Notes under the pieces: generated by a model
The model's database searches: none
Told to the model about the DNA's origin: nothing
What the model saw: the letters and a program-made list of their open reading frames with translations, nothing else
UHGV virus genome: UHGV-0235457
Reading direction: 5' to 3' (one strand)
DNA length: 38,103 bases
Source: a virus
Program-made: the position numbers and the translations under genes
Part shown: piece after piece, positions 2,958 to 36,745 of the stretch
Position numbering within the stretch: the first letter of the stretch is position 1
Layout: every line of letters begins with the position of its first letter

Positions 2958-4142
2958 ATGAGTGAAACTCGTTTTCATGGTGCCCGTGTTACGGAAAGTA
3001 CCGACCTGGTAACAGCGATTAATGATGTTGATTCCAGTGTTATCGGTATCGTGGCAACGGCGGATGATGCGGATGCGGAGCTGTTCCCGCTGAACAAGCC
3101 CACACTGCTGACCCGCGTCAATGACGTGCTGGGAAAATGCGGAACAACGGGGACGCTTTATCGTGCGCTTAAGGCCATCGCAGACCAGGTGAGCACAAAG
3201 GTGATCGTCGTTCGCGTGGCTGAACACAAAGAAGAAGACGGAAAAACGCAGGATCAACTGGTTATCGGTGGTTCTGAATCTGACGGCAGCTATACGGGGA
3301 TGTATGCGCTGCTTGTTGCAGAGCAGGATGAAAGCATCGGATACCGTCCGCGTATTCTGGCCGCGCCGGAGCTGGACACGGAGGCGGTAACAAAATCCCT
3401 GTGCGTGATTGCGGGTAAACTGCGCGCGTTTGTGTATGCCTCATGTCACGGCTGTAACACGATGGCTGAGGCGATGACCTACCGCCAGAAATTCAACGAA
3501 CGTGAGGTGATGCTCTTATGGCCGGACTTCATCGCCTACAACCCGAAAAGTGGCAAAAACGAAACGTTCCCCGCGCCTGCTTATGCGTGCGGCCTTCGTG
3601 CGTACATTGACCATGAGCAGGGATGGCACAAATCACTGTCCAACGTTCCGGTTAAAAATGTGCTGGGGATGTCGAGGCATGTGTTCTGGTCGTTGCAGGC
3701 CGAAGACAGTGATGCCAACAGCCTCAACAACAAAGAAATCACGACCATTATTCGTCGCAACGGGTTCCGCTTCTGGGGCAACCGCACACCGGAAACGAAC
3801 GCCTACATCTTTGAGGTGTACACCCGAACCGCACAGGTGCTGGCTGATTCAATTGCGGAAGCGCAGTTTGAAACCATCGACAGTCCACTGACGCCTGCGA
3901 ACGTGAAGGATGTTATCAGTGCCATCAGGGCAAAACTGGATTCACTGGTTACTGCCGGGAAACTGATTGGTGCGGAGTGCTGGTATGACGTGGTGGATAA
4001 CGGCACCACGAATTTACGTCAGGGGCGTGTGCGTATTCGCTACAAATATACGCCTGTTCCCCCGCTGGAAGACATGGAGCTTTACCAGTCGTTTACTGAT
4101 GAATTCTTTGGTCCCGCATTTGCGGTGCTGGGAGGTGCCTGA
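2958..4142 (+). CDS. Contractile tail sheath protein (P2 gpFI-like)
   Basis: 394 aa; DADAELFPLNKP and AIADQ motifs as recalled for P2 FI; AAGGGG RBS. Confidence 0.9.
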   Translation: MSETRFHGARVTESTDLVTAINDVDSSVIGIVATADDADAELFPLNKPTLLTRVNDVLGKCGTTGTLYRALKAIADQVSTKVIVVRVAEHKEEDGKTQDQLVIGGSESDGSYTGMYALLVAEQDESIGYRPRILAAPELDTEAVTKSLCVIAGKLRAFVYASCHGCNTMAEAMTYRQKFNEREVMLLWPDFIAYNPKSGKNETFPAPAYACGLRAYIDHEQGWHKSLSNVPVKNVLGMSRHVFWSLQAEDSDANSLNNKEITTIIRRNGFRFWGNRTPETNAYIFEVYTRTAQVLADSIAEAQFETIDSPLTPANVKDVISAIRAKLDSLVTAGKLIGAECWYDVVDNGTTNLRQGRVRIRYKYTPVPPLEDMELYQSFTDEFFGPAFAVLGGA

Positions 4143-5238: not shown

Positions 5239-8032
5239 TATCCGGGTCGCTTTCAGCGCCGTTGACAGGCTGACCCGGCCTGCCGAAAACGCCCGCCGCC
5301 TGATGGGGCAGTTTGGTGACTCCATCCAGCGAACGCAGGGGGCGATCAAAAATCTCGAGCGTCAGGCGCGTTCATTTGAGCGCGCCCGCGACGCTGTCAG
5401 TAAAGCGGATGCGGGTATCGTGAAAGCACGACGCCAGCTTAACGCCCTTAATCAGTTACAACGCACGGGTACAGTGCTCAGCGAAAAACAACAAAAGCTG
5501 ATGCAGCAGTTAAGCACCCGGCTTGAACGCCTGAATGAATCGCGCACACGGGAAATTCAGAAAATGCGGGAACTTGGCGGAGAGCTGAAACGCCACGGCA
5601 TTTCCCTGACAGGCAGCGATAACACCATCCAGCAGGCCATCAGACGCACCGAACAGTACAACAACCAGCTTGAACGCGAACGGCAGGCGCTTGCGCGTGT
5701 AACGCGGGCGCGTGAGCGGTATTCGCGCGTGCAGGAAACAGCGGGAAAACTGAAAACAGGTGGTGCGCTGGCAATTGGTGCGGCAGCGGCTGGCGGCTAT
5801 GCTGCCGGGCGTTTTTTGCAGCCTGCGATCGGGTTCGGGAAAGAGATGTCCCGCGTTCAGGCACTGACGCGAATCGACAAAAACAGCCCGCAGTTTAAGG
5901 CGCTGCGTGAGCAGGCGTTAAAACTTGGCTCTGAAACGCAGTTCACCGCAGGCGATGCCGCCAGTGGGCAGGCATTTCTTGCAATGGCTGGCTTCACTCC
6001 GCAGGCCATTCAGGCTGCGCTTCCGGGCGTGCTGAGCATGGCAACGGCTGGCGGCATGGATCTCGGCGAGACGGCGGATATTGGCTCAAATATCCTGACG
6101 CAGTTCGGCCTTTCTGCTGACCAGATGGACCGGGTTGGCGACACGCTCACCGCAGCATTTACCCGTACCAACACTGACCTTCGCGCACTGGGCGAAACCA
6201 TGAAATATGCAGGTCCGGTGGCGGGTAAGCTGGGAATATCGCTGGAGCAGGCCGCAGCGATGGCGGGCGTGCTGGCGAATATGGGTATCAGGGGGAGTGA
6301 TGCCGGGACGGCAATGCGTGCCAGCCTGGCTCGTCTGGCATCACCGCCAAAGGCAGCAGCAGAGGCGCTGAAAGAGCTTGGTGTGGCAGTCTCTGACGCG
6401 AACGGCAAAATGCGCCCGATGGAGGATGTGCTGGCCGACCTTTATAAAGCCACCCGCAAATACGGGGAAGTTGACCGGGTATCGTTCTTTAAGGACATTG
6501 CCGGAGAAGAGGCTTTCACATCGTTTATGGCGCTCGTTGATGCAGCGGGTGACGGTTCCTTACCTAAACTGAGAAAAGAACTTGAAGGTGCGCGCGGTGA
6601 GGCTGAACGCACAGCAAAGGTTATGGCCAACAACCTTGACGGCGATCTGAAATCACTCGGCAGTGCATGGGAAGGGTTGCGCATCCGCATTGCAGATCTG
6701 ATTGACGGTCCGCTGCGTTCTGTCACGCAGTGGCTCACGCGGGTGGTATCAAGGGTGACGGCGCTGGCGCAGGCCCATCCAACACTGACGCGCCAGCTAC
6801 TGATAGCAGGCGGTGCGTTGCTGGCAATGACTGCAACGGTTGGCTCGTTGTCGCTGGCTATTGGTGTGCTTGCTGGCCCGCTGGCAAAACTGCGTCTTGG
6901 TTTTTCTCTCCTGACCGGATCAATGAATGCTGTCAGGGTCCTGCCAGCACTATGGGGAATGGTGACGGGTTCCGTTTCTTTGCTGGGAGGTGCTATCGGG
7001 GCGCTGTTCAGTCCGGTTGGTCTTATCGTGGCTGCGCTTGCCGGAGCTGCCGTTCTTATCTGGAAATACTGGGATCCCATCAGGGCATTTTTTGCCGGGG
7101 TGTTCAGTGGGATTATGGAGCGGCTGGCCCCGTTGCGTGAAACCTTTGAACGGTTTGGCCCTGTTTTTGACGCAATCGGAAGCGGGATCAGCCAGGTGTT
7201 TAACTGGTTTAAATCGCTGCTGTCACCGATGGAGTCCAGCAAGGAAACGTTGGATAAATGTACCAGTGCTGGCGAGATATTCGGTAACGTTCTTGGTGGC
7301 GCGTTACAGCTTGTTCTGACGCCTGCAAAAATGTTGCTGGATACGCTGGCGTGGATACTTGAAAAACTCGGTGTTCTTCCGGATGAAGCGGAAAGGGCGA
7401 GAAAGAAAATCGAAGACGCACAGCGTGCGGCCATTCTTCAGGACAAGGTTGCCTTGCTTCAGGGGGACCTGGCGAAAATCAATCCGCCGAAGCCTGTAGA
7501 AAATGGCAATGGCACCGGAGGTGATAACCCCAAAGACAATAAACCGCTCACAGACAGCAATACCGGTACGCTGCGCAGACTCAGCAAAATTGCTGATAAC
7601 ACAGGTAAGCTGGTTGAGGAGACGAAAAAACGCATTGGCCCCGGCGATATTGTCTTTAAAAACCTGCCCCGAGCACTTGCTGTTCGTGGGGAGTGGCAGG
7701 AGCGGAAGATTGCGCAGGTCAGTAAGCCTGCCCCCGCAATTAATATCACACCCGTGGTCCCGGCTCCGCTGCCTCCGGCGCTGGTCCCTGTTGTTGCGGC
7801 CAGCTCCCGTCCGGTGGCGGAGGCCATACGATCTCCAGTGGCATCAGTTCCTGTAACTTCCCGTAACCGGGAGCCTGTTGCCTCCGGATTTGGTGGTGAA
7901 ATTCATGTTCATCTGCATAACGTTGTTACGCAGAATCCCCGCGAACTGGCGAAACTGGTCGGTGAAATGGTCAGGGCAGAAATGGAACGGCGCGCCCGTG
8001 CCGGGCGTGGCAGTTTTTACGATAAAGATTGA
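5216..8032 (+). CDS. Tail tape measure protein (P2 gpT-like); start ambiguous (GTG 5189, ATG 5216 or 5225)
   Basis: 947-codon ORF, coiled-coil N-terminus, hydrophobic glycine-rich central segment; follows chaperone genes. Confidence 0.85.
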   Translation: MQTMKTLDIRVAFSAVDRLTRPAENARRLMGQFGDSIQRTQGAIKNLERQARSFERARDAVSKADAGIVKARRQLNALNQLQRTGTVLSEKQQKLMQQLSTRLERLNESRTREIQKMRELGGELKRHGISLTGSDNTIQQAIRRTEQYNNQLERERQALARVTRARERYSRVQETAGKLKTGGALAIGAAAAGGYAAGRFLQPAIGFGKEMSRVQALTRIDKNSPQFKALREQALKLGSETQFTAGDAASGQAFLAMAGFTPQAIQAALPGVLSMATAGGMDLGETADIGSNILTQFGLSADQMDRVGDTLTAAFTRTNTDLRALGETMKYAGPVAGKLGISLEQAAAMAGVLANMGIRGSDAGTAMRASLARLASPPKAAAEALKELGVAVSDANGKMRPMEDVLADLYKATRKYGEVDRVSFFKDIAGEEAFTSFMALVDAAGDGSLPKLRKELEGARGEAERTAKVMANNLDGDLKSLGSAWEGLRIRIADLIDGPLRSVTQWLTRVVSRVTALAQAHPTLTRQLLIAGGALLAMTATVGSLSLAIGVLAGPLAKLRLGFSLLTGSMNAVRVLPALWGMVTGSVSLLGGAIGALFSPVGLIVAALAGAAVLIWKYWDPIRAFFAGVFSGIMERLAPLRETFERFGPVFDAIGSGISQVFNWFKSLLSPMESSKETLDKCTSAGEIFGNVLGGALQLVLTPAKMLLDTLAWILEKLGVLPDEAERARKKIEDAQRAAILQDKVALLQGDLAKINPPKPVENGNGTGGDNPKDNKPLTDSNTGTLRRLSKIADNTGKLVEETKKRIGPGDIVFKNLPRALAVRGEWQERKIAQVSKPAPAINITPVVPAPLPPALVPVVAASSRPVAEAIRSPVASVPVTSRNREPVASGFGGEIHVHLHNVVTQNPRELAKLVGEMVRAEMERRARAGRGSFYDKD

Positions 8033-8038
8033 GGAGTC

Positions 8039-8533
8039 ATGGCCATGATGATGATCTACGGCATGTTTGTTTTTGAGCTGCGCACGCTGCCGCATCAGCA
8101 GTTACAGCAAAACAAAAGCTGGCGGCATGTGAAAAATGAACGCGTTAACCGTTCAGCAAGCTGGCAGTATATCGGTGCAGGTGATGATCGCATCGTTCTT
8201 TCTGGTGTGCTTTATCCTGAAATTACAGGTGGCGAAGTGTCGCTGTCGCTGCTGACCACGCAGGCGTATACAGGACGACCCTGGCCTCTGATTGATGGCG
8301 TCGGGCAGATTTACGGCATGTATGTCCTGACCGGAACGAATACGACCCGTTCCGAGTTTGATCGCTACGGTAAGGCGAAAAAGATAGAATTTTCACTGAC
8401 CCTTGAACGCTGTGATGAGGATTTGCGGGAGCGCCTGCAATCCTCATCGTTCAGCGATATGCTGTCCGGCTTCAAAGATAAGGTGACATCATCTCTTAAC
8501 AGCGCGGCCAGTTCAGTTAAAGGGCTGTTCTGA
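8039..8533 (+). CDS. Tail protein gpU-like
   Basis: 164 aa; MMMIYGMFVFELRTLP start resembles P2 U as recalled; follows tape measure. Confidence 0.8.
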   Translation: MAMMMIYGMFVFELRTLPHQQLQQNKSWRHVKNERVNRSASWQYIGAGDDRIVLSGVLYPEITGGEVSLSLLTTQAYTGRPWPLIDGVGQIYGMYVLTGTNTTRSEFDRYGKAKKIEFSLTLERCDEDLRERLQSSSFSDMLSGFKDKVTSSLNSAASSVKGLF

Positions 8534-8544
8534 TTTAACACAAA

Positions 8545-8580
8545 AACCGCTAATGGTCAGATTAGCGGTTATTTTGTTTT
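8545..8580. terminator. Bidirectional rho-independent terminator between convergent U and invertase genes
   Basis: ACCGCTAAT-GGTCAG-ATTAGCGGT hairpin; T-rich run on both sides; the plus-strand T-tract overlaps the last invertase codons. Confidence 0.55.
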
Positions 8581-9156
8581 CTGACTCTTCTCTATTGTTC
8601 CGCTTGATTCTCCTGCGGGGTGGTAACGATAAATCGTCGATGTACCAATGCCGTAAATTATTGCCAGTTGTTTTCTGTCGTGACCGTTTTTAATCAGCCT
8701 TGCTATTTGCTCATGCTGTTCTTTTGTCAGCTTCGGTCGACGTCCGCCTGTGCGCCCCCGTGCGCGCGCTGCCGCCAGTCCGGCCAGTGTACGTTCAACA
8801 ATTAATTCACGTTCCATTTCAGCCAGGGCACCCATCACGTGGAAGAAGAAACGCCCCATTGGAGAAGATGTATCTATGCTGTCGGTCAGACTGCGAAAAT
8901 TAATCCCTCGTTCCCGTAGTTCCCCGACGAGAGAAATCAGATGTTTCATGCTTCGCCCGAGGCGATCCAGTTTCCAGACAACCAGCGTGTCACCTTTTTG
9001 AAGGCGCTTTAAAGCGCGTTTTAATCCCGGTCGGTCTGTCTTTGTCCCGCTTAATTTATCTTCAAATATTTGTTCACATCCTGCACAAACAAGAGCGTTT
9101 CGTTGCAGGTCTGTATTCTGGTCATTTGTTGATACCCTTACATAGCCAATCAGCAC
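8569..9156 (-). CDS. Serine-recombinase DNA invertase (Gin/Hin/Cin/Pin family)
   Basis: LIGYVRVSTNDQ N-terminus with catalytic Ser, C-terminal HTH; likely GTG start at 9156 with GGGAGA RBS (ORF track begins at 9174). Confidence 0.9.
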   Translation of the reverse strand: MLIGYVRVSTNDQNTDLQRNALVCAGCEQIFEDKLSGTKTDRPGLKRALKRLQKGDTLVVWKLDRLGRSMKHLISLVGELRERGINFRSLTDSIDTSSPMGRFFFHVMGALAEMERELIVERTLAGLAAARARGRTGGRRPKLTKEQHEQIARLIKNGHDRKQLAIIYGIGTSTIYRYHPAGESSGTIEKSQKTK

Positions 9157-28032: not shown

Positions 28033-30924
28033 TTAATCGGTTACAGGATTTTTAAATCCCGCTTTTGCCTGTTTTGTGCGCGCTTCATATATCGCGGCAC
28101 GTTTTTGCTCATTTACGGGATTTGTGAGTCCCGTTTCTGTCTGTTTTTTGTTTCCACTGGTCAGGCTACCCCGCAGCAGGTCTGCTTTGCGGCGGGCGCG
28201 TTCAGTGGTTTCACTGATTCTCTGTGCGTGCTCTGCGTCACGGATGGCGCGCAGCATGTCAGAAAGCATGGTAACGGGGGTTTTCATGGTGTTCTGGCCC
28301 TGCTGAAGTGTGGATGCCAGGCGTGCGGTGGCTTCGGGGTCTGATGCCCCCAGCTGTTCCAGATAGCTGGCGACCGGGTTATGGCGGATCTCCGTGCTGC
28401 TTACGCCGTGGTTACGGCTCAGACGCTGCCAGAGCTGCGTGATCCGGCTGTCCGGTCGGGTATCCGGTTTGCGTACAATTTCAAATCCCTGAGGTGCAAT
28501 GATGCTGCCGTCAACGTACAGACTGCCGCCCCGTAACAGGTGCTGCATCTGCTGTTCACCGATATGCAGGCCGAGAGATTCAGCAGACTCCCGCCATTCT
28601 TTAGCGAGTAATTCGTGGTTATCAGGCAAAGGCCGCTGCTGTTTGCGGCTCTGTGTCCAGCTCTGCATTTCATCACTGCTGTTTTTTGCCTGTTTGTCAC
28701 GAAGCGAACGCATCAGCGCCCGGCGTTCGTGCCGTTTCAGTGAGCGCATCCATTCGTTCACTTCAACGCCGTCAAGGAGCTGCGGCCATGGTGCTGGCCG
28801 TTCTTCCGGCTGTTCTGTCCCGTTGTTGTCCGTTTCCTGTACACGGGGACAGTTATTGCCACGAGTCCAAGGGGCGGCAGGGCCGCCCTGAAGGTCAAAA
28901 CCATTTTCGCGGGCACTGTCTTCCGCTTCCGGTTTGCGTCTTACCAGCTTCCAGTTATCCGGATGCGTGCACACACGGGAGGATTCCCCGATGAGTGGTG
29001 ACCAGATCCCGTAAATCTGTACGCTCTGTTCGCCGTAATCGTTTAGCTCATCGGCGAGGTCGTAGGCGGTGCGAATCAGGTAGTCTTTGCGTGGAACAAG
29101 TACGCCGCCCTGTTTCTCTATGTAGGTGGCAAAACATCCGGCATCAGCGGCGGCAAGAACCGCATCCATTGCGTCATCCTTTAGCCGTTGCGGGCCTTCC
29201 GGGTTGCGTGCCATCTGGCTGGCAAGGCGGCGCAGTTCACGCCATACCTGGCGGGAGGGGATGCCAAAGAACTGGAACTGGCGGACCCGGTGAAGGCGCG
29301 CCCAGCCGATGGCGCGTTCCACGCTCTCGGCCATTGATTTTCCGGTTTCGTGGTCAACGCGTGGCTTGCCCGTTTTCGGGTCGATGCCATCCACGGCACG
29401 GCTGTCCAGGTTTTTCCCGATGTAGGTGGCGATGTAGCTGGTCGGTGTGCCTTTTGAGCCGTCGACGTACTCCGCCTTAAAGCGTGGGGTAATATCATCA
29501 CCCAGCTCGTGACGATCTTCCTGAATGGCAATATCGCGGGTGTGGGACACAATAGTGTCGATTTCTTCCGGATGAGCAAAGACCATCATATGCCAGTGCA
29601 CGGTGCCGTCATGGTGAGGCTCCACCGTGCGGATGCCATACCAGCGCAGGCCGTCGCGGTTCAGTTTCTTGCGGACCGCCGCAAAAAACGTGTTAACCAG
29701 GTAATCGCTGGAGTCGCGCATGGTGGCCCCGTTCCATTTGGGATTCGGATGACCGTTCTCTGTTGTGGCGTGGTATTTTGACGGGCAGGTGACAGTCAGA
29801 AACACCGCTTTGTCGCCACGGGCTTCGGCCAGAAGTTCCAGCCCCTTCATGGTGGCCATCATTTCTGCCTTACGGTGAACCGGGTTACTTACTCCCGCGT
29901 AATACACTGTCTCGAGATCAATCGTGAACCCATCTTCGTTTTCCAGCATGAAACTTTTCAGGAAATCGCGTGTTTTCTCGCGCTGTGCGCGAAACTCGCT
30001 TAATGCGTCCTGGCTCAGATAGGGCGATGTTTTTCTGGAAACCAGACAGGCGGCGCGGAGTTGTTCTTCTCTCCACTCGCAACGTAACAGCCACAGTTTG
30101 CGTTTCCACCATTCCGCACAGGTCAGGCGAAGGATTGCGCCCGGCAGCAGCTCCGTGTCCGGTCCGTTCCTCCGGTCTTTATCTGTTGTCAGTGCGTCAT
30201 AATGTGGAGGCATGATGTGCAGGTGTAACGCCATGCGGGCCAGCATCTGATACGCCTTCAGCGTTACATCCATGGTCAGTTCGCCATCGGTCGCGCCAAA
30301 GCCATCGCAGAGTTTTTCGAAGGTGCTGCTGAACATCGCCGCCGTCATGGTGGCCAGCGTCTGTATCTGGTGTTTGTTGAGCTGCGGCAGGTAAAGCAAA
30401 TCGTCCAGGCGTTCGCGTCCGGCAAGGGAGCGATAACCCGGTGTCAGCCAGCGCCCGTCAGTGCGATCCAGACGTTCGAATATTTTGCGCAGGGTTCCGC
30501 GTGTATAGCGTTCCGCCTGCCAGCTCTTTTTGCCTTTCTGACGATCGGCTTCCTGCTTCTTGCGCAGGAAAGAGAGGTGGCGGCTCAGAGGTTCTCGCAG
30601 ATAAACGGGAAGCACCTTCAGTGTGGCAAAGGCACGGGCTACCGGGTCTTGTTCTGTTGCCCGGCGCTTACTGATGATGCTCTGTGCCAGCTTTTCACGC
30701 TGTCCGGCTTCCTCAAGGGATGCCATGAGTTTTTTACCCATGGCGGATTGTGCGAAAAAGGCTTCTTCCTTCGCTTCCTGTTCTTCCTGTGCCCTTTTGT
30801 CCGCCTCAAGGTAGTAACGGATGGCGCGTTGCAGGTCGGTTTCAGTTTCCTGCCTGCGCTCCGTAAATCTGGCCGGATCAATAGCTGGTCGTGGTTCATT
30901 CCAGCTCCATGCAAACGCACTCAT
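28033..30924 (-). CDS. Rolling-circle replication initiator (P2 gpA-like); alternative GTG start at 30951
   Basis: HWHMMVF (HUH-like) and YIATYIGK motifs; ATG 30924 overlaps upstream stop (ATGA). Confidence 0.85.
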   Translation of the reverse strand: MSAFAWSWNEPRPAIDPARFTERRQETETDLQRAIRYYLEADKRAQEEQEAKEEAFFAQSAMGKKLMASLEEAGQREKLAQSIISKRRATEQDPVARAFATLKVLPVYLREPLSRHLSFLRKKQEADRQKGKKSWQAERYTRGTLRKIFERLDRTDGRWLTPGYRSLAGRERLDDLLYLPQLNKHQIQTLATMTAAMFSSTFEKLCDGFGATDGELTMDVTLKAYQMLARMALHLHIMPPHYDALTTDKDRRNGPDTELLPGAILRLTCAEWWKRKLWLLRCEWREEQLRAACLVSRKTSPYLSQDALSEFRAQREKTRDFLKSFMLENEDGFTIDLETVYYAGVSNPVHRKAEMMATMKGLELLAEARGDKAVFLTVTCPSKYHATTENGHPNPKWNGATMRDSSDYLVNTFFAAVRKKLNRDGLRWYGIRTVEPHHDGTVHWHMMVFAHPEEIDTIVSHTRDIAIQEDRHELGDDITPRFKAEYVDGSKGTPTSYIATYIGKNLDSRAVDGIDPKTGKPRVDHETGKSMAESVERAIGWARLHRVRQFQFFGIPSRQVWRELRRLASQMARNPEGPQRLKDDAMDAVLAAADAGCFATYIEKQGGVLVPRKDYLIRTAYDLADELNDYGEQSVQIYGIWSPLIGESSRVCTHPDNWKLVRRKPEAEDSARENGFDLQGGPAAPWTRGNNCPRVQETDNNGTEQPEERPAPWPQLLDGVEVNEWMRSLKRHERRALMRSLRDKQAKNSSDEMQSWTQSRKQQRPLPDNHELLAKEWRESAESLGLHIGEQQMQHLLRGGSLYVDGSIIAPQGFEIVRKPDTRPDSRITQLWQRLSRNHGVSSTEIRHNPVASYLEQLGASDPEATARLASTLQQGQNTMKTPVTMLSDMLRAIRDAEHAQRISETTERARRKADLLRGSLTSGNKKQTETGLTNPVNEQKRAAIYEARTKQAKAGFKNPVTD
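28041..28138. repeat. Two imperfect ~38-bp direct repeats, each with an internal near-palindrome, in the 3' end of the replication gene just upstream of the ParM-like gene
   Basis: TTACAGGATTTTTAAATCCCGCTTTTGCCTGTTTTGTG vs TTACGGGATTTGTGAGTCCCGTTTCTGTCTGTTTTTTG. Confidence 0.45.
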
Positions 30925-31310
30925 GGCTGGTATCCCGTCACGCGCTGCCACTCCTGCGAGAAGAGGGCGGAAAGGCGGTTAAATTCAGCGGTGTATTCAC
31001 TCAGCGAGGCACACCCGCCAGCAGTGCGATGCGCCAGCATTGCTGCAAATACGGAGGCCGGGGAGTCGTAATACGCCAGCAGTGATTCGCCGTGCGGTGT
31101 CAGGCAGTGCAACGCCAGTCCGTGTGGTGTGAAATCCACGCGGTAGCAGTCGTCTACTGTGAAATAAAGGGTGTCTGCATTCTCCGGTTTTGTGGTGCGT
31201 GCTCTGTTGTCACGACCACGGATGTAGAGATCAAATAACCCCTGAAGAACGGGAGCCAGACGGGTGTCCTGTGTGCGCACCCATCTTGTGAAGTCATGAG
31301 CGTCAATCAT
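30921..31310 (-). CDS. Hypothetical early protein
   Basis: 129 aa; translationally coupled to the replication gene. Confidence 0.55.
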   Translation of the reverse strand: MIDAHDFTRWVRTQDTRLAPVLQGLFDLYIRGRDNRARTTKPENADTLYFTVDDCYRVDFTPHGLALHCLTPHGESLLAYYDSPASVFAAMLAHRTAGGCASLSEYTAEFNRLSALFSQEWQRVTGYQP

Positions 31311-31382
31311 GCTGCAATTCTCTTTACTACAGATGTGCGAAGGCCTCCCGCCGCAAGGTGCAGGAAAGGCCCGGAACAGGAA

Positions 31383-31613
31383 TTAATGGAGTTTGTTTTG
31401 CTGCTGGATGAGCTGTTGAAGCTCGTGCAGATCATCCGCCAGATAGCTGAAAACAGAGGCGGAATAAATGTTTGATAGTGCGTGGCTGCGCTCATGCAGC
31501 ATATTGATGTGCATGATTTGCGCGACGCGTGATGCGCGGGAAAGTCTGCGGTTGATTTCAGTCTGGATGTGACGACGCTCCGCGATAGCGCGGTGCTGTT
31601 TGCGGTCTGCCAT
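31383..31613 (-). CDS. Hypothetical small early protein
   Basis: 76 aa. Confidence 0.5.
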   Translation of the reverse strand: MADRKQHRAIAERRHIQTEINRRLSRASRVAQIMHINMLHERSHALSNIYSASVFSYLADDLHELQQLIQQQNKLH

Positions 31614-31790
31614 GGTGTGGCCTCTTTGCTCGGTGATAGAAATAACTCACCATCCAGAGTTGAGAATCTCGGGGTGGCGAGACGTACAGGGTTCTCAACA
31701 CCGGAGAGCAAAGAATCCGGCCCGACCGAAGTCGGCCCCGTACGCCCCGCCATAATTCTGACGCGAAAAAGACGTGGCAATACAGTACGC

Positions 31791-31816
31791 ACAAAAAAAC
31801 CGCTTGCGCGGTTATG
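31791..31816 (-). terminator. Rho-independent terminator-like hairpin within the early-region non-coding stretch
   Basis: AACCGCGCAAGCGGTT stem followed by T7 on the minus strand. Confidence 0.5.
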
Positions 31817-31935
31817 CGCTTTGCTCTGTATCGGGTTGAGAATCCCGGCACCCGTTTTATGAGGTGCAGCGGAAATGTAACCTGACCGATTGAGGCATGG
31901 CAAGCGGTTTTTTTGTGTGTGCATGTTCTGGTTTC

Positions 31936-32235
31936 TTACTGGTTCAGAAAAAAATCAAAAACGTTATCGATGCGTTGCAGCAGCTCTTGCTGCATTGCTT
32001 CCGGCGTTTCCGGTTCGCCAGGTGCCCCCAGCGTTGCGCAGAAATCAGCGATTTCATGATGGAGCGTGAGGCGAATGGCAGGAGCCGTGGTTCTGGCGTG
32101 CTCCAGCTGATCCAGCAGTGCCAGCACAGCAGACGGCGAGAGCATTGCGCGAAATGCCAGTAATTTTTGAGGCGTTGCCATTCGTTGCAGGGCAAATGCC
32201 AGTTCGCGTAGCTTCTGGTGGTTGATGGTGCTCAT
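31936..32235 (-). CDS. Hypothetical early protein
   Basis: 99 aa; 4-bp overlap with upstream gene. Confidence 0.5.
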   Translation of the reverse strand: MSTINHQKLRELAFALQRMATPQKLLAFRAMLSPSAVLALLDQLEHARTTAPAIRLTLHHEIADFCATLGAPGEPETPEAMQQELLQRIDNVFDFFLNQ

Positions 32236-32677: not shown

Positions 32678-32763
32678 TACGCCTCCTTGGCGTATGCGAA
32701 TACCTCCGCGAATGCGGATTGTTTTTACATTTTCTTATTTAACCTGTGGTTTTATTTGCTCTG

Positions 32764-32877
32764 TTATTCGCCAGTGAAAAAGCGTTCAATCTTTTTTACT
32801 GAATGAATAATTCGCATAATCCCAATGGCGCAGGCCACAGAAATAATCAGAACAAGCCATGAGATAAATATACTCAT
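32764..32877 (-). CDS. Putative 37-aa hydrophobic peptide (not in ORF track)
   Basis: MSIFISWLVLIISVACAIGIMRIIHSVKKIERFFTGE; ATG overlaps stop of upstream gene (ATGA). Confidence 0.35.
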   Translation of the reverse strand: MSIFISWLVLIISVACAIGIMRIIHSVKKIERFFTGE

Positions 32878-34290: not shown

Positions 34291-34695
34291 ATGAAAAATG
34301 ATATTGGTCAGCGGTTGCGTGAGGAAAGGGAAAGATTGGGACTTAGTCAAGTTGCCATGAGCGACATTGGTGGAGTCAAAAAGCTAACTCAGCTTAGATA
34401 TGAGAAAGGAGATAGCTTTCCTGATGCTGCGTATTTGGCAGCGCTGTCTCGTTTTGGCCTTGATGTTCAGTATGTTGTGTTGGGAATTCACTCACCTGAA
34501 ACTTATAACGATGATGAGCAGGAGTTGATTACTCGCTTTCGAGCAGCTTCGTTAGATGTGAAAAACGCGGTGATTGGGGCTTTAAAAGGTGCGATCAGTG
34601 AAAAGGAAACTCAGCCATCAGGACGTGAGTTAAATATTTCTGGTGGTAATAACCGTATCGCTGGTCGTGACTATAACGAAACTAAGGGTAGGTGA
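34291..34695 (+). CDS. XRE-family HTH repressor (immunity repressor candidate)
   Basis: 134 aa; N-terminal HTH (LGLSQVAMSDIGGVKKLTQLRYEKG); divergent from early operon, upstream of integrase. Confidence 0.75.
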   Translation: MKNDIGQRLREERERLGLSQVAMSDIGGVKKLTQLRYEKGDSFPDAAYLAALSRFGLDVQYVVLGIHSPETYNDDEQELITRFRAASLDVKNAVIGALKGAISEKETQPSGRELNISGGNNRIAGRDYNETKGR

Positions 34696-35743: not shown

Positions 35744-36745
35744 ATGTCGGTTCGTAAGATTCCATCAGGTAAATGGCTTTGCGAATGTTATCCCTACGGG
35801 GCATCGGGAAAACGCATTCGTAAACAGTTTGCGACAAAAAGTGAGGCGCTCTCTTATGAGCGCCGTTTAATGAATAGTAGAGTTGGAGACGAGTTTCAAG
35901 ATGGTTCTGGTCCTCGTCTTTCTGAGTTGATTGCTCGTTGGTTTGAGATGTACGGTAAAACCTTGTCCTCTGGTGCAGAGCGCAAAGTCAAACTTGAGGC
36001 GATTTGTTCCAGGCTGGGAGATCCATTTGCTTCTCAGTTTGACAAAAATATGTTTGCCACTTATCGGGAAAGAAGGCTATCAGGAGAATGGAATCCCAAG
36101 GGGAAGAAAAAACTTAGTGAAGCAACCGTTAATCGCGAGCAGTCATATCTACATGCTGTTTTTGCCGAACTGAAGCGCCTTGGGGAGTGGTCTGGTGAAA
36201 ACCCCCTGACTGGTATTCGCAAGTTTCGTGAGGAAGAAAAGGAACTGGCGTTTCTGTATGTAGATGAGATTGAACGCCTTCTGATTGCGTGTGATGAGTC
36301 ACGGAATAAAGATTTGGGGGTTGTTGTCCGTATTGGGCTTGCGACTGGTGCTCGGTGGAGTGAAGCAGAAGGATTAAAGCAATCTCAAGTACTGCCCGGT
36401 CGAATCACATTTGTTAAAACTAAAGGAAAGAAGAACCGCACTGTACCGATTTCACCTCAATTGCAGGCTATGCTTCCCAAAAAACGAGGAGCGCTATTTT
36501 CACCATGTTATGAGGCTTTTGACGCTGCAATTAAGAGAGCGAAGATCGAGCTTCCTGATGGGCAATTAACTCATGTGCTACGTCACACGTTTGCCAGTCA
36601 TTTTATGATGCGGGGCGGAAATATTCTTGTGTTGCAAAAAATACTGGGGCATAGCGATATAAAAATGACTATGCGTTATGCGCATTTTGCTCCAGGTCAT
36701 TTAGAGGCTGCTGTTGAATTGAACCCTTTTGACAATAGAGGGTAA
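35744..36745 (+). CDS. int: Tyrosine recombinase integrase, P2-like
   Basis: 333 aa; GKRIRKQF...SEA N-terminus, HVLRHTFASHF and MRYAHF motifs; adjacent to right att repeat. Confidence 0.9.
   Translation: MSVRKIPSGKWLCECYPYGASGKRIRKQFATKSEALSYERRLMNSRVGDEFQDGSGPRLSELIARWFEMYGKTLSSGAERKVKLEAICSRLGDPFASQFDKNMFATYRERRLSGEWNPKGKKKLSEATVNREQSYLHAVFAELKRLGEWSGENPLTGIRKFREEEKELAFLYVDEIERLLIACDESRNKDLGVVVRIGLATGARWSEAEGLKQSQVLPGRITFVKTKGKKNRTVPISPQLQAMLPKKRGALFSPCYEAFDAAIKRAKIELPDGQLTHVLRHTFASHFMMRGGNILVLQKILGHSDIKMTMRYAHFAPGHLEAAVELNPFDNRG

Follow-up and report, generated by a model that had tools for sequence, protein, structure and literature searches.

Two small RNAs, IsrK and C4, make up what Barquist et al. 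called the "IsrK-C4 immunity system": they are structural homologues of the seqA and CI RNA of P4 (PMC3632133), and the system occurs in similar form in P1, P7, and N15 (PMC3632133). In Gifsy-1, an RNA of ∼80 nt, STnc1160, is processed from transcripts that read through the IsrK terminator and is lost on deletion of the isrK promoter; in this prophage, the effect of the short IsrK on the translation of the downstream genes is activation and not repression (PMC4825925).

Does the DNA considered here belong with these systems? The window, i.e., the whole stretch of 38,103 nucleotides presented as virus genome UHGV-0235457, holds an island at 31614-31935 that is, with high confidence, an IsrK-C4 antisense-RNA immunity cassette located in the early operon of a P88-like phage of the P2 family. 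The cassette is the same device as the seqA-CI RNA-seqC arrangement of P4, and it is kin to c4 of P1/P7, cA of N15, and IsrK/STnc1160 of Gifsy-1. An earlier note on this DNA had proposed a small RNA, an attenuator, or a protein-binding site. The first two of these options were right in kind, as two minus-strand small RNAs are encoded, while the anatomy that accompanied them was wrong.

The island lies between the ORFs 31936..32235 (Ead/Ea22-like) and 31383..31613, and the divergent minus-strand early genes flank it on both sides, which agrees with its description as embedded in an early operon. With 322 nt, it is the biggest gap separating these genes. It had also been called the only sizeable non-coding stretch, and this holds less strictly, because a second gap of ∼196 nt (32678-32873) has to be counted if the ORF in it is unreal. 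This second interval contains only a 37-codon minus-strand ORF and a plus-strand terminator-like hairpin (32705-32718). A 341-nt minus-strand RNA of the island folds with z = -5.5 relative to shuffled sequences.

As for the phage, the DNA of the 1-kb region is most similar, at 91-93% identity, to that of complete P88-like phages assigned to Xuanwuvirus (Peduoviridae, P2 family). The idea that the element is a satellite of the P4 kind, and that its 972-aa ORF encodes an alpha primase, was rejected: this ORF is gpA according to Pfam, and the relatives are complete phages. The minus-strand early operon runs in the order Arc-like, Cox-like, small ORFs, MarR-type wHTH, Ead-like, island, 76-aa protein, orf129, and gpA. 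The 76-aa protein, the first product under the putative control of the cassette, scores 32.5 bits against PF25738 (cut-off 27), shares 32% identity over 50 residues with P4 epsilon (BLASTP, E 6e-9), and is labelled "derepression protein" by PGAP. By its similarity to epsilon, it is a predicted anti-repressor.

The whole window was scanned with Rfam at gathering thresholds, and exactly two matches were returned, both in the island, on the minus strand, and full length. The first is isrK (63.1 bits versus a gathering score of 50; E 2.3e-11; model positions 1-77 of 77). In the 75-nt RNA, two hairpins, numbered 1 and 2, precede an intrinsic terminator (31813..31793), for which the terminator scan gives a stem AACCGC/GCGGTT at 31813..31798, a loop GCAA, and seven T residues ending at 31793; this is the minus-strand terminator noticed previously and placed at 31791-31816. 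Folded alone, the RNA is predicted to form the three hairpins, with a terminator probability of ∼0.95. Upstream of it, a promoter-like site combines a -35 TTGCCA (31903..31898) with a -10 TACATT (31879..31874) over an 18-nt spacer, and transcription would start at ∼31867, coinciding with position 1 of the isrK model.

The second match is the C4 family (78.5 bits versus a gathering score of 45; E 6.6e-14; model positions 1-87 of 87), and this RNA begins 35 nt past the end of the IsrK-like RNA. It forms a 17-bp basal stem with two hairpins, and its minimum-energy fold (-47.6 kcal/mol, z = -4.9) is the Rfam consensus. The C4 part is 76% identical at the DNA level to N15 cA, the "secondary immunity repressor". 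How is this RNA supplied? A strong terminator separates the promoter from it, so that its supply needs either read-through or a second, doubtful promoter-like site located between the terminator and the C4-like RNA. The latter might be a source of C4-like RNA independent of read-through; it is poorly conserved, its -35 reads TCGCCA in many relatives, and it has no equivalent in the P4 or lambdoid cassettes compared.

The C4-like RNA carries two recognition elements, a' and b', that are unpaired when the RNA is folded alone, and each of them is complementary to one site in the IsrK-like RNA (a1, b1) and to one in the leader of the next gene (a2, b2). At the DNA level, the pairing of a' with a2 appears as the complementarity of GTTGAGAA (31659-31666) to TTCTCAAC (31692-31699), which extends to 14 nt at 86%. 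It had been taken for an 8-bp stem around a 24-nt loop; the complementarity exists, with 25 nt between its halves, but the hairpin does not, since what was seen is a recognition element and its target. Likewise, the motif described as recurring is present twice, as the direct repeat GTTGAGAATCTCGG (31659-31672) and GTTGAGAATCCCGG (31835-31848), and its role is that of target sites: one copy is a1, inside the IsrK-like RNA, and the other is a2, in the leader that precedes the next gene. The bare repeat is within chance (longest perfect match 10 nt, while shuffles reach 14), so that whatever significance it has comes from the covariation in relatives and not from its length. The second complementary set, b' (CUUUGCUCU as noted on the sequence) with its partners b1 and b2, had been overlooked. 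Here, b2 overlaps the Shine-Dalgarno sequence of the epsilon-like gene, 7 nt before the AUG (31613). No further paired a and b targets of the C4-like RNA occur elsewhere in the 38-kb window. The features are collected in Table 1.

Table 1. Features of the island and of the genes around it, with positions in the window (RNA sequences where so marked)
Feature	Position	Strand	Sequence, match, or remark
Integrase	35744-36745	+	
HTH repressor	34291-34695	+	
Upstream arm of the inverted repeat	31920..31900	-	ACACACAAAAAAACCGCUUGC (RNA); overlaps an A-tract (~-47..-41) and the first four -35 bases
Upstream-arm letters			contains CCGCUUGC
Sigma-70 promoter-like site of the IsrK-like RNA	31903..31874	-	consensus match only
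IsrK-like leader RNA (P4 "seqA" region)	31867..31793	-	Rfam RF01394 isrK
Target a1	31842..31835	-	UUCUCAAC (RNA); in IsrK hairpin 2, covering loop and 3' side; pairs with a'
Target b1	31827..31819	-	AGAGCAAAG (RNA); single-stranded IsrK stretch before the terminator; pairs with b'
Downstream arm of the inverted repeat	31807..31787	-	terminator loop, 3' stem half, U-tract, then GUGCGU
Second promoter-like site	31780..31752	-	TTGCCA-17-AATTAT; between IsrK terminator and C4-like RNA; doubtful
C4/CI-type antisense RNA, 88 nt	31757..31670	-	Rfam RF01695
Recognition element b'	31714..31705	-	UCUUUGCUCU (RNA); loop of C4 hairpin 2
Recognition element a'	31699..31692	-	GUUGAGAA (RNA); single-stranded junction between hairpin 2 and 3' side of basal stem
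Target a2	31666..31659	-	UUCUCAAC (RNA); 4 nt past the C4 model match; "seqC" side
Target b2	31631..31623	-	GAGCAAAGA (RNA); overlaps Shine-Dalgarno AAGAGG of epsilon-like gene
Epsilon-like gene, 76 aa, first regulated gene (predicted)	31383..31613	-	Pfam PF25738 Derepression
orf129	30921-31310	-	no Pfam match
gpA-type replication endonuclease	28033-30951	-	Pfam Phage_GPA, E 2.5e-131

A further argument for this anatomy comes from the relatives. In an alignment of two phage records, the mean column identity is 95%, and the differences sit in six patches in which complementarity is kept. A broader set of 80 viral contigs encoding the epsilon-like protein (91-100% identity) gave 42 distinct versions of the island. 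Among these 42, both sides have changed in 4 of the 8 pairs of a1-a' (92% of the cells paired), in 6 of the 9 pairs of b1-b' (100%), in 4 of the 8 pairs of a'-a2 (92%), and in 5 of the 9 pairs of b'-b2 (98%). The covariation scores amount to 0.245 (shuffles 0.078) and 0.271 (shuffles 0.062), and none of 500 shuffles reaches the observed values; with the partners slid by 1-3 columns, the score is at most 0.072, and at most 0.056 for the comparison that gives 0.245 (a1-a', b1-b'). The structure of the C4-like RNA follows the same rule, as double changes occur in two basal-stem pairs and in two of the five pairs of hairpin 1, while its helices are 100% paired in the 42 variants. The covariance analysis across related phages that had been suggested for this island finds its paired regions covarying, and their pairing is clearly conserved.

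One may ask if these pairings could be purely local. According to this alternative, no RNA would act in trans, the island would serve as a cis attenuator or bind a protein, and the stem and the inverted repeat would be local structures or operators. The complementarities are indeed present in cis, and the second gene upstream of the island codes for a DNA-binding protein of the MarR type. Nevertheless, we regard this reading as very improbable. It has to face two full-length matches to RNA families; the 8-bp stem would need the breaking of the 17-bp basal stem of the C4-like RNA; the arms of the inverted repeat are 92 nt apart, unlike an operator; and the three-way covariation (a1, a', and a2; b1, b', and b2) fits a shared trans-acting partner. 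As for protein binding in particular, none of the results lends it support.

The variation falls into discrete specificities: five a-types and ten b-types (two of which differ by one base), found in ten a'/b' combinations, to which three additional genomes contribute more. Such a pattern is what one would predict for an antisense RNA that acts in trans and is selected for distinct specificities. Similar specificity variation has been described for P1 versus P7 and for P4 versus phiR73, and in P1/P7 the specificity variants give heteroimmunity. By analogy, the many specificity types of the present cassette would point to a phage-specific control of the same sort.

The same variants serve to judge another proposal, that the island is protein-coding and that a 205-codon ORF (31924..31307) is a gene of the "Ash" family. 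Across the island, 38 of the 42 variants keep this frame open, it has a weak match to Pfam Phage_ASH (E 0.0026), and one RefSeq record, NC_049391, annotates it as a CDS for a "transcriptional regulator" (6377-6994). Yet, the Phage_ASH score of 18.6 is under the cut-off of 26, the ATG is missing in 8 of the 42 variants, and a stop or frameshift interrupts the frame in 3. Moreover, the ORF overlaps the entire epsilon-like gene in a different frame, and the variation of the island is limited to the pairing patches, where it is compensatory at the RNA level. PGAP, for its part, annotates no RNA at the island and leaves the region empty or marks it as merely "similar to ash family protein". There is also a precedent: the equivalent ORF of P4, the "cI protein", covers the CI RNA according to the relevant passages of Barquist et al. 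and of the P4 work cited there (PMC3632133). In the P4 record NC_001609, positions 8168-8584 are annotated as "cI gene product, transcriptional repressor" over the RNA gene. We therefore put the 205-codon ORF down to the historical artefact that also produced the P4 "cI protein" ORF, and we reject it as a gene, given the sub-threshold Pfam score, the lost ATGs, and the broken frames; that it is real nonetheless seems extremely unlikely. The earlier judgement that the ORFs crossing the island look like junk is borne out, as none of them is a credible gene.

How would the IsrK-C4 cassette work? In the scenario that P1, P4, N15, and Gifsy-1 suggest, the cassette promoter would fire, and most of the transcripts would stop at the IsrK terminator. 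The RNA that reads through would be processed into a stable C4-like RNA, presumably cut from its precursor at the 5' end by RNase P; the support for this step consists of the GCCACCC that follows the C4 basal stem and of the family resemblance. The C4-like RNA would then pair with a2 and b2 and block translation of the epsilon-like anti-repressor, the untranslated RNA would be open to Rho, and orf129 and the replication gene A may in this way be under polarity control and have their expression lowered. Pairing with a1 and b1 would have one of two effects: either it reinforces early termination, as in the P4 view, or the IsrK-like RNA titrates the C4-like RNA and so activates, as in the Gifsy-1 view. 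Overall, we infer premature Rho-dependent termination and superinfection immunity by antisense pairing. Points against the best explanation are the terminator that stands in front of the C4-like RNA and the identity of the first downstream gene, which corresponds to neither the kil of P4 nor the icd of P1.

The Gifsy-1 precedent also allows for the same cassette with a reverse logic. In this case, the terminated IsrK-like RNA would be a trans activator, an anti-antisense, that pairs with b' and a', located in either the C4-like RNA or the read-through transcript, and so makes the ribosome-binding site free; the island would be chiefly an ON switch for the epsilon-like anti-repressor. The targets a1 and b1 match a' and b' as well as a2 and b2 do, and they covary equally; in Gifsy-1, IsrK supplied in trans raised the translation of anrP more than 100-fold, and compensatory mutations back the pairing (PMC4825925). 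On the other hand, the C4, CI, and CA RNAs are repressors in P4, P1, and N15, and TraDIS has indicated that the IsrK-like region is required for the quiescence of P4-like prophages (PMC3632133). This reverse logic is compatible with the identification of the island as an IsrK-C4 cassette, and we hold it to be possible, if somewhat doubtful. With the short IsrK of Gifsy-1 acting as an activator of downstream translation, the net control in the present cassette may be of either sign.

A feature of a different nature is the long inverted repeat. The 15-bp repeat reported previously is real, although it was placed one base off: AAAAAAACCGCTTGC lies at 31793-31807 and GCAAGCGGTTTTTTT at 31900-31914, instead of 31792-31806 and 31901-31915. 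It extends to 21 nt with 95% complementarity (31787-31807/31900-31920), and 18 of these nucleotides are perfect, compared with a longest perfect repeat of this kind that averages 8.5 nt, and reaches 12 at most, among 200 dinucleotide shuffles. The upstream arm precedes the predicted start of IsrK and is consequently present only in RNAs begun further upstream. It is conserved throughout the 42 variants; this includes those with another gene in the upstream position, in which the homology starts exactly at the arm. The upstream arm is found as well in the Citrobacter phage Shae_phiSM and in Salmonella and E. albertii genomes, and the arms are identical in three further species of the genome collection. 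The P4 and lambdoid cassettes compared (P4, phi346, and ASU11) are devoid of the repeat, and for this reason the idea that it is a family-wide feature was rejected.

What keeps the two arms complementary? Among the 42 variants, 17 of the 21 pairs are invariant and no pair covaries; the sole variable position, in the terminator loop (A/C/U), is uncompensated and mismatched in 36 of the 42, and its partner is a -35 base. Constraints on the promoter and on the terminator could each explain one conserved arm, but not complementarity across 18 bases. Equilibrium folding of the variants separates the RNAs by their origin: the terminator hairpin has a probability of ∼0.9 (range 0.32-0.99) in RNAs starting at 31867, and of at most 0.17 in every variant in RNAs begun upstream, whereas in the lambdoid cassettes it stays at ∼0.97 regardless of the upstream sequence added. 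A tentative proposal, about which we have real doubts, is that the inverted repeat ties the fate of the IsrK terminator to the origin of transcription. RNAs from the cassette promoter, which lack the upstream arm, would terminate and yield IsrK; those of the early operon, begun at the Cox-side promoter, would carry the arm, and this would pair with the terminator loop, the 3' half of its stem, and the U-tract. The outcome of this pairing would be either that termination is prevented or that a duplex of 18-21 bp forms, which RNase III could possibly cut, excising IsrK. If the proposal is true, a stand-alone immunity cassette could occupy the interior of an operon while transcription would still reach the replication gene A, and the repeat would represent a simple case of termination dependent on the promoter of origin. 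A caveat is that the terminator strand contested by the arm is the 3' one, while the 5' one is not sequestered, which is kinetically unfavourable.

In five variants that have a different upstream gene (L090, L092, L044, L039, and L072), the arm is closely preceded by a T-run and, ahead of this, by a strong hairpin, CCGGCCAG...CTGGCCGG; in L090 and L092 this hairpin is placed ∼60-20 nt upstream of it. Transcription coming from upstream may end at this point, and this bears on the antitermination idea.

The island is present in 1178 of 5426 complete E. coli genomes, i.e., about one in five, and 367 matching records are at least 99% identical, including those of O157:H7 strains, whose island has 99.4% identity. 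Phage 520873 (NC_049344), of the same genus, has at its site 3574-3596 a deletion corresponding to window positions 32226..31426; what is missing is the Ead-like gene, the island in full, and the larger part of the epsilon-like gene, inside which the deletion ends. A phage living without the module suggests that it is dispensable for the core genome. Some relatives have ParM-type segregation/partition genes right after gpA (L001, 10262-11540; NC_049391, 10262-11537; L087, from 7887), a hint of a plasmid-like maintenance option in P88-like phages. A near-identical enterobacterial P88-like cassette, that of L092, also occurs on a 226-kb contig, NZ_JBQPOM010000071.1, labelled as Vagococcus sp., a Gram-positive; contamination or mislabelling is the likely cause.

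What does the finding mean? The device itself is known, having been described for P4, P1/P7, N15, and lambdoid prophages, and it is now met in P88-type phages of the P2 family; a search returned no Xuanwuvirus paper whose title or abstract describes it. These phages would carry a second, RNA-based layer of control over their epsilon-like anti-repressor. Along with this, a false reading of the region as a "hypothetical protein" or "transcriptional regulator" is removed, and in its place there are two RNA genes and their targets. The ten natural specificity combinations, set in a near-identical background, constitute a panel for the evolution of antisense specificity and heteroimmunity. The inverted repeat is the one unexplained, lineage-specific feature of the cassette.

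Placed beside the known systems, the cassette shares something with each of them. In Gifsy-1 (isrK - orf45 (STnc1160) - anrP), IsrK has its own promoter and terminator, it is complementary to the downstream RNA, and an anti-repressor gene comes next (PMC4825925), all as predicted for the window. Unlike Gifsy-1, the window has no translated frame like orf45 that would end on the next start codon. The cassettes of Stx phages have ∼71% identity to the window and both Rfam families, and in Stx and other lambdoid phages the IsrK-C4 pair stands in front of anti-repressor genes. The lambdoid cassettes begin their own operon and are without the upstream arm, their terminator stays folded in the predictions with any upstream sequence, and their downstream gene is of the Rha/Ant type, unlike the epsilon-like gene of the window.

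In P1/P7 immI (c4 - icd - ant) and in N15 (cA - icd - antA), the antisense RNA is of the same Rfam family and has two recognition elements; as in the window, the targets are duplicated up- and downstream, the downstream one covers the ribosome-binding site, and the regulated product is an anti-repressor, as predicted here, albeit one of a different family. P1 and N15 have an icd-like gene downstream, which is absent from the window, where the epsilon-like gene is first and orf129 has no Pfam match. A further difference is that an IsrK-like terminated leader precedes the antisense RNA here, unlike in P1/P7 and N15.

P4, with its layout PLE - seqA - cI/CI RNA - seqC - kil - ... - epsilon, provides the closest parallel. 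The Rfam scan places isrK at 8692..8615 and C4 at 8507..8420, in the same order and orientation and upstream of epsilon, and the PLE promoter (TTGCCT-17-TATAGT) has the same position as the IsrK promoter-like site of the window. In both, an intrinsic terminator ends the leader, a and b complementarity links the antisense RNA to upstream and downstream sites, and the downstream b site covers the ribosome-binding site of the first gene. The differences start with the host element, which is a complete P2-family phage with gpA replication here and a satellite with an alpha primase in the case of P4. In addition, P4 has kil first, while kil/eta are absent here and the epsilon-like gene is first; IsrK and C4 are separated by 35 nt here and by 107 nt in P4; and the cassette of the window sits inside an operon and has the 21-nt inverted repeat that P4 is without.

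The elements themselves can also be compared. In P4 they are a' UUCUCAC versus GUGAGAA and b' CCUGUGAA versus UUCACAGG, and the a helix is strand-flipped between the systems: the P4 CI RNA reads UUCUCAC and its targets GUGAGAA, whereas in the window and in the Stx phage phi346 the RNA reads GU(U)GAGAA and the targets UUCUCA(A)C. As a consequence of this flip, the recognition element of C4 RNAs of the phi346 type has its complement in the P4 CI RNA, and a satellite and a resident prophage could engage in cross-talk via the flipped a element.
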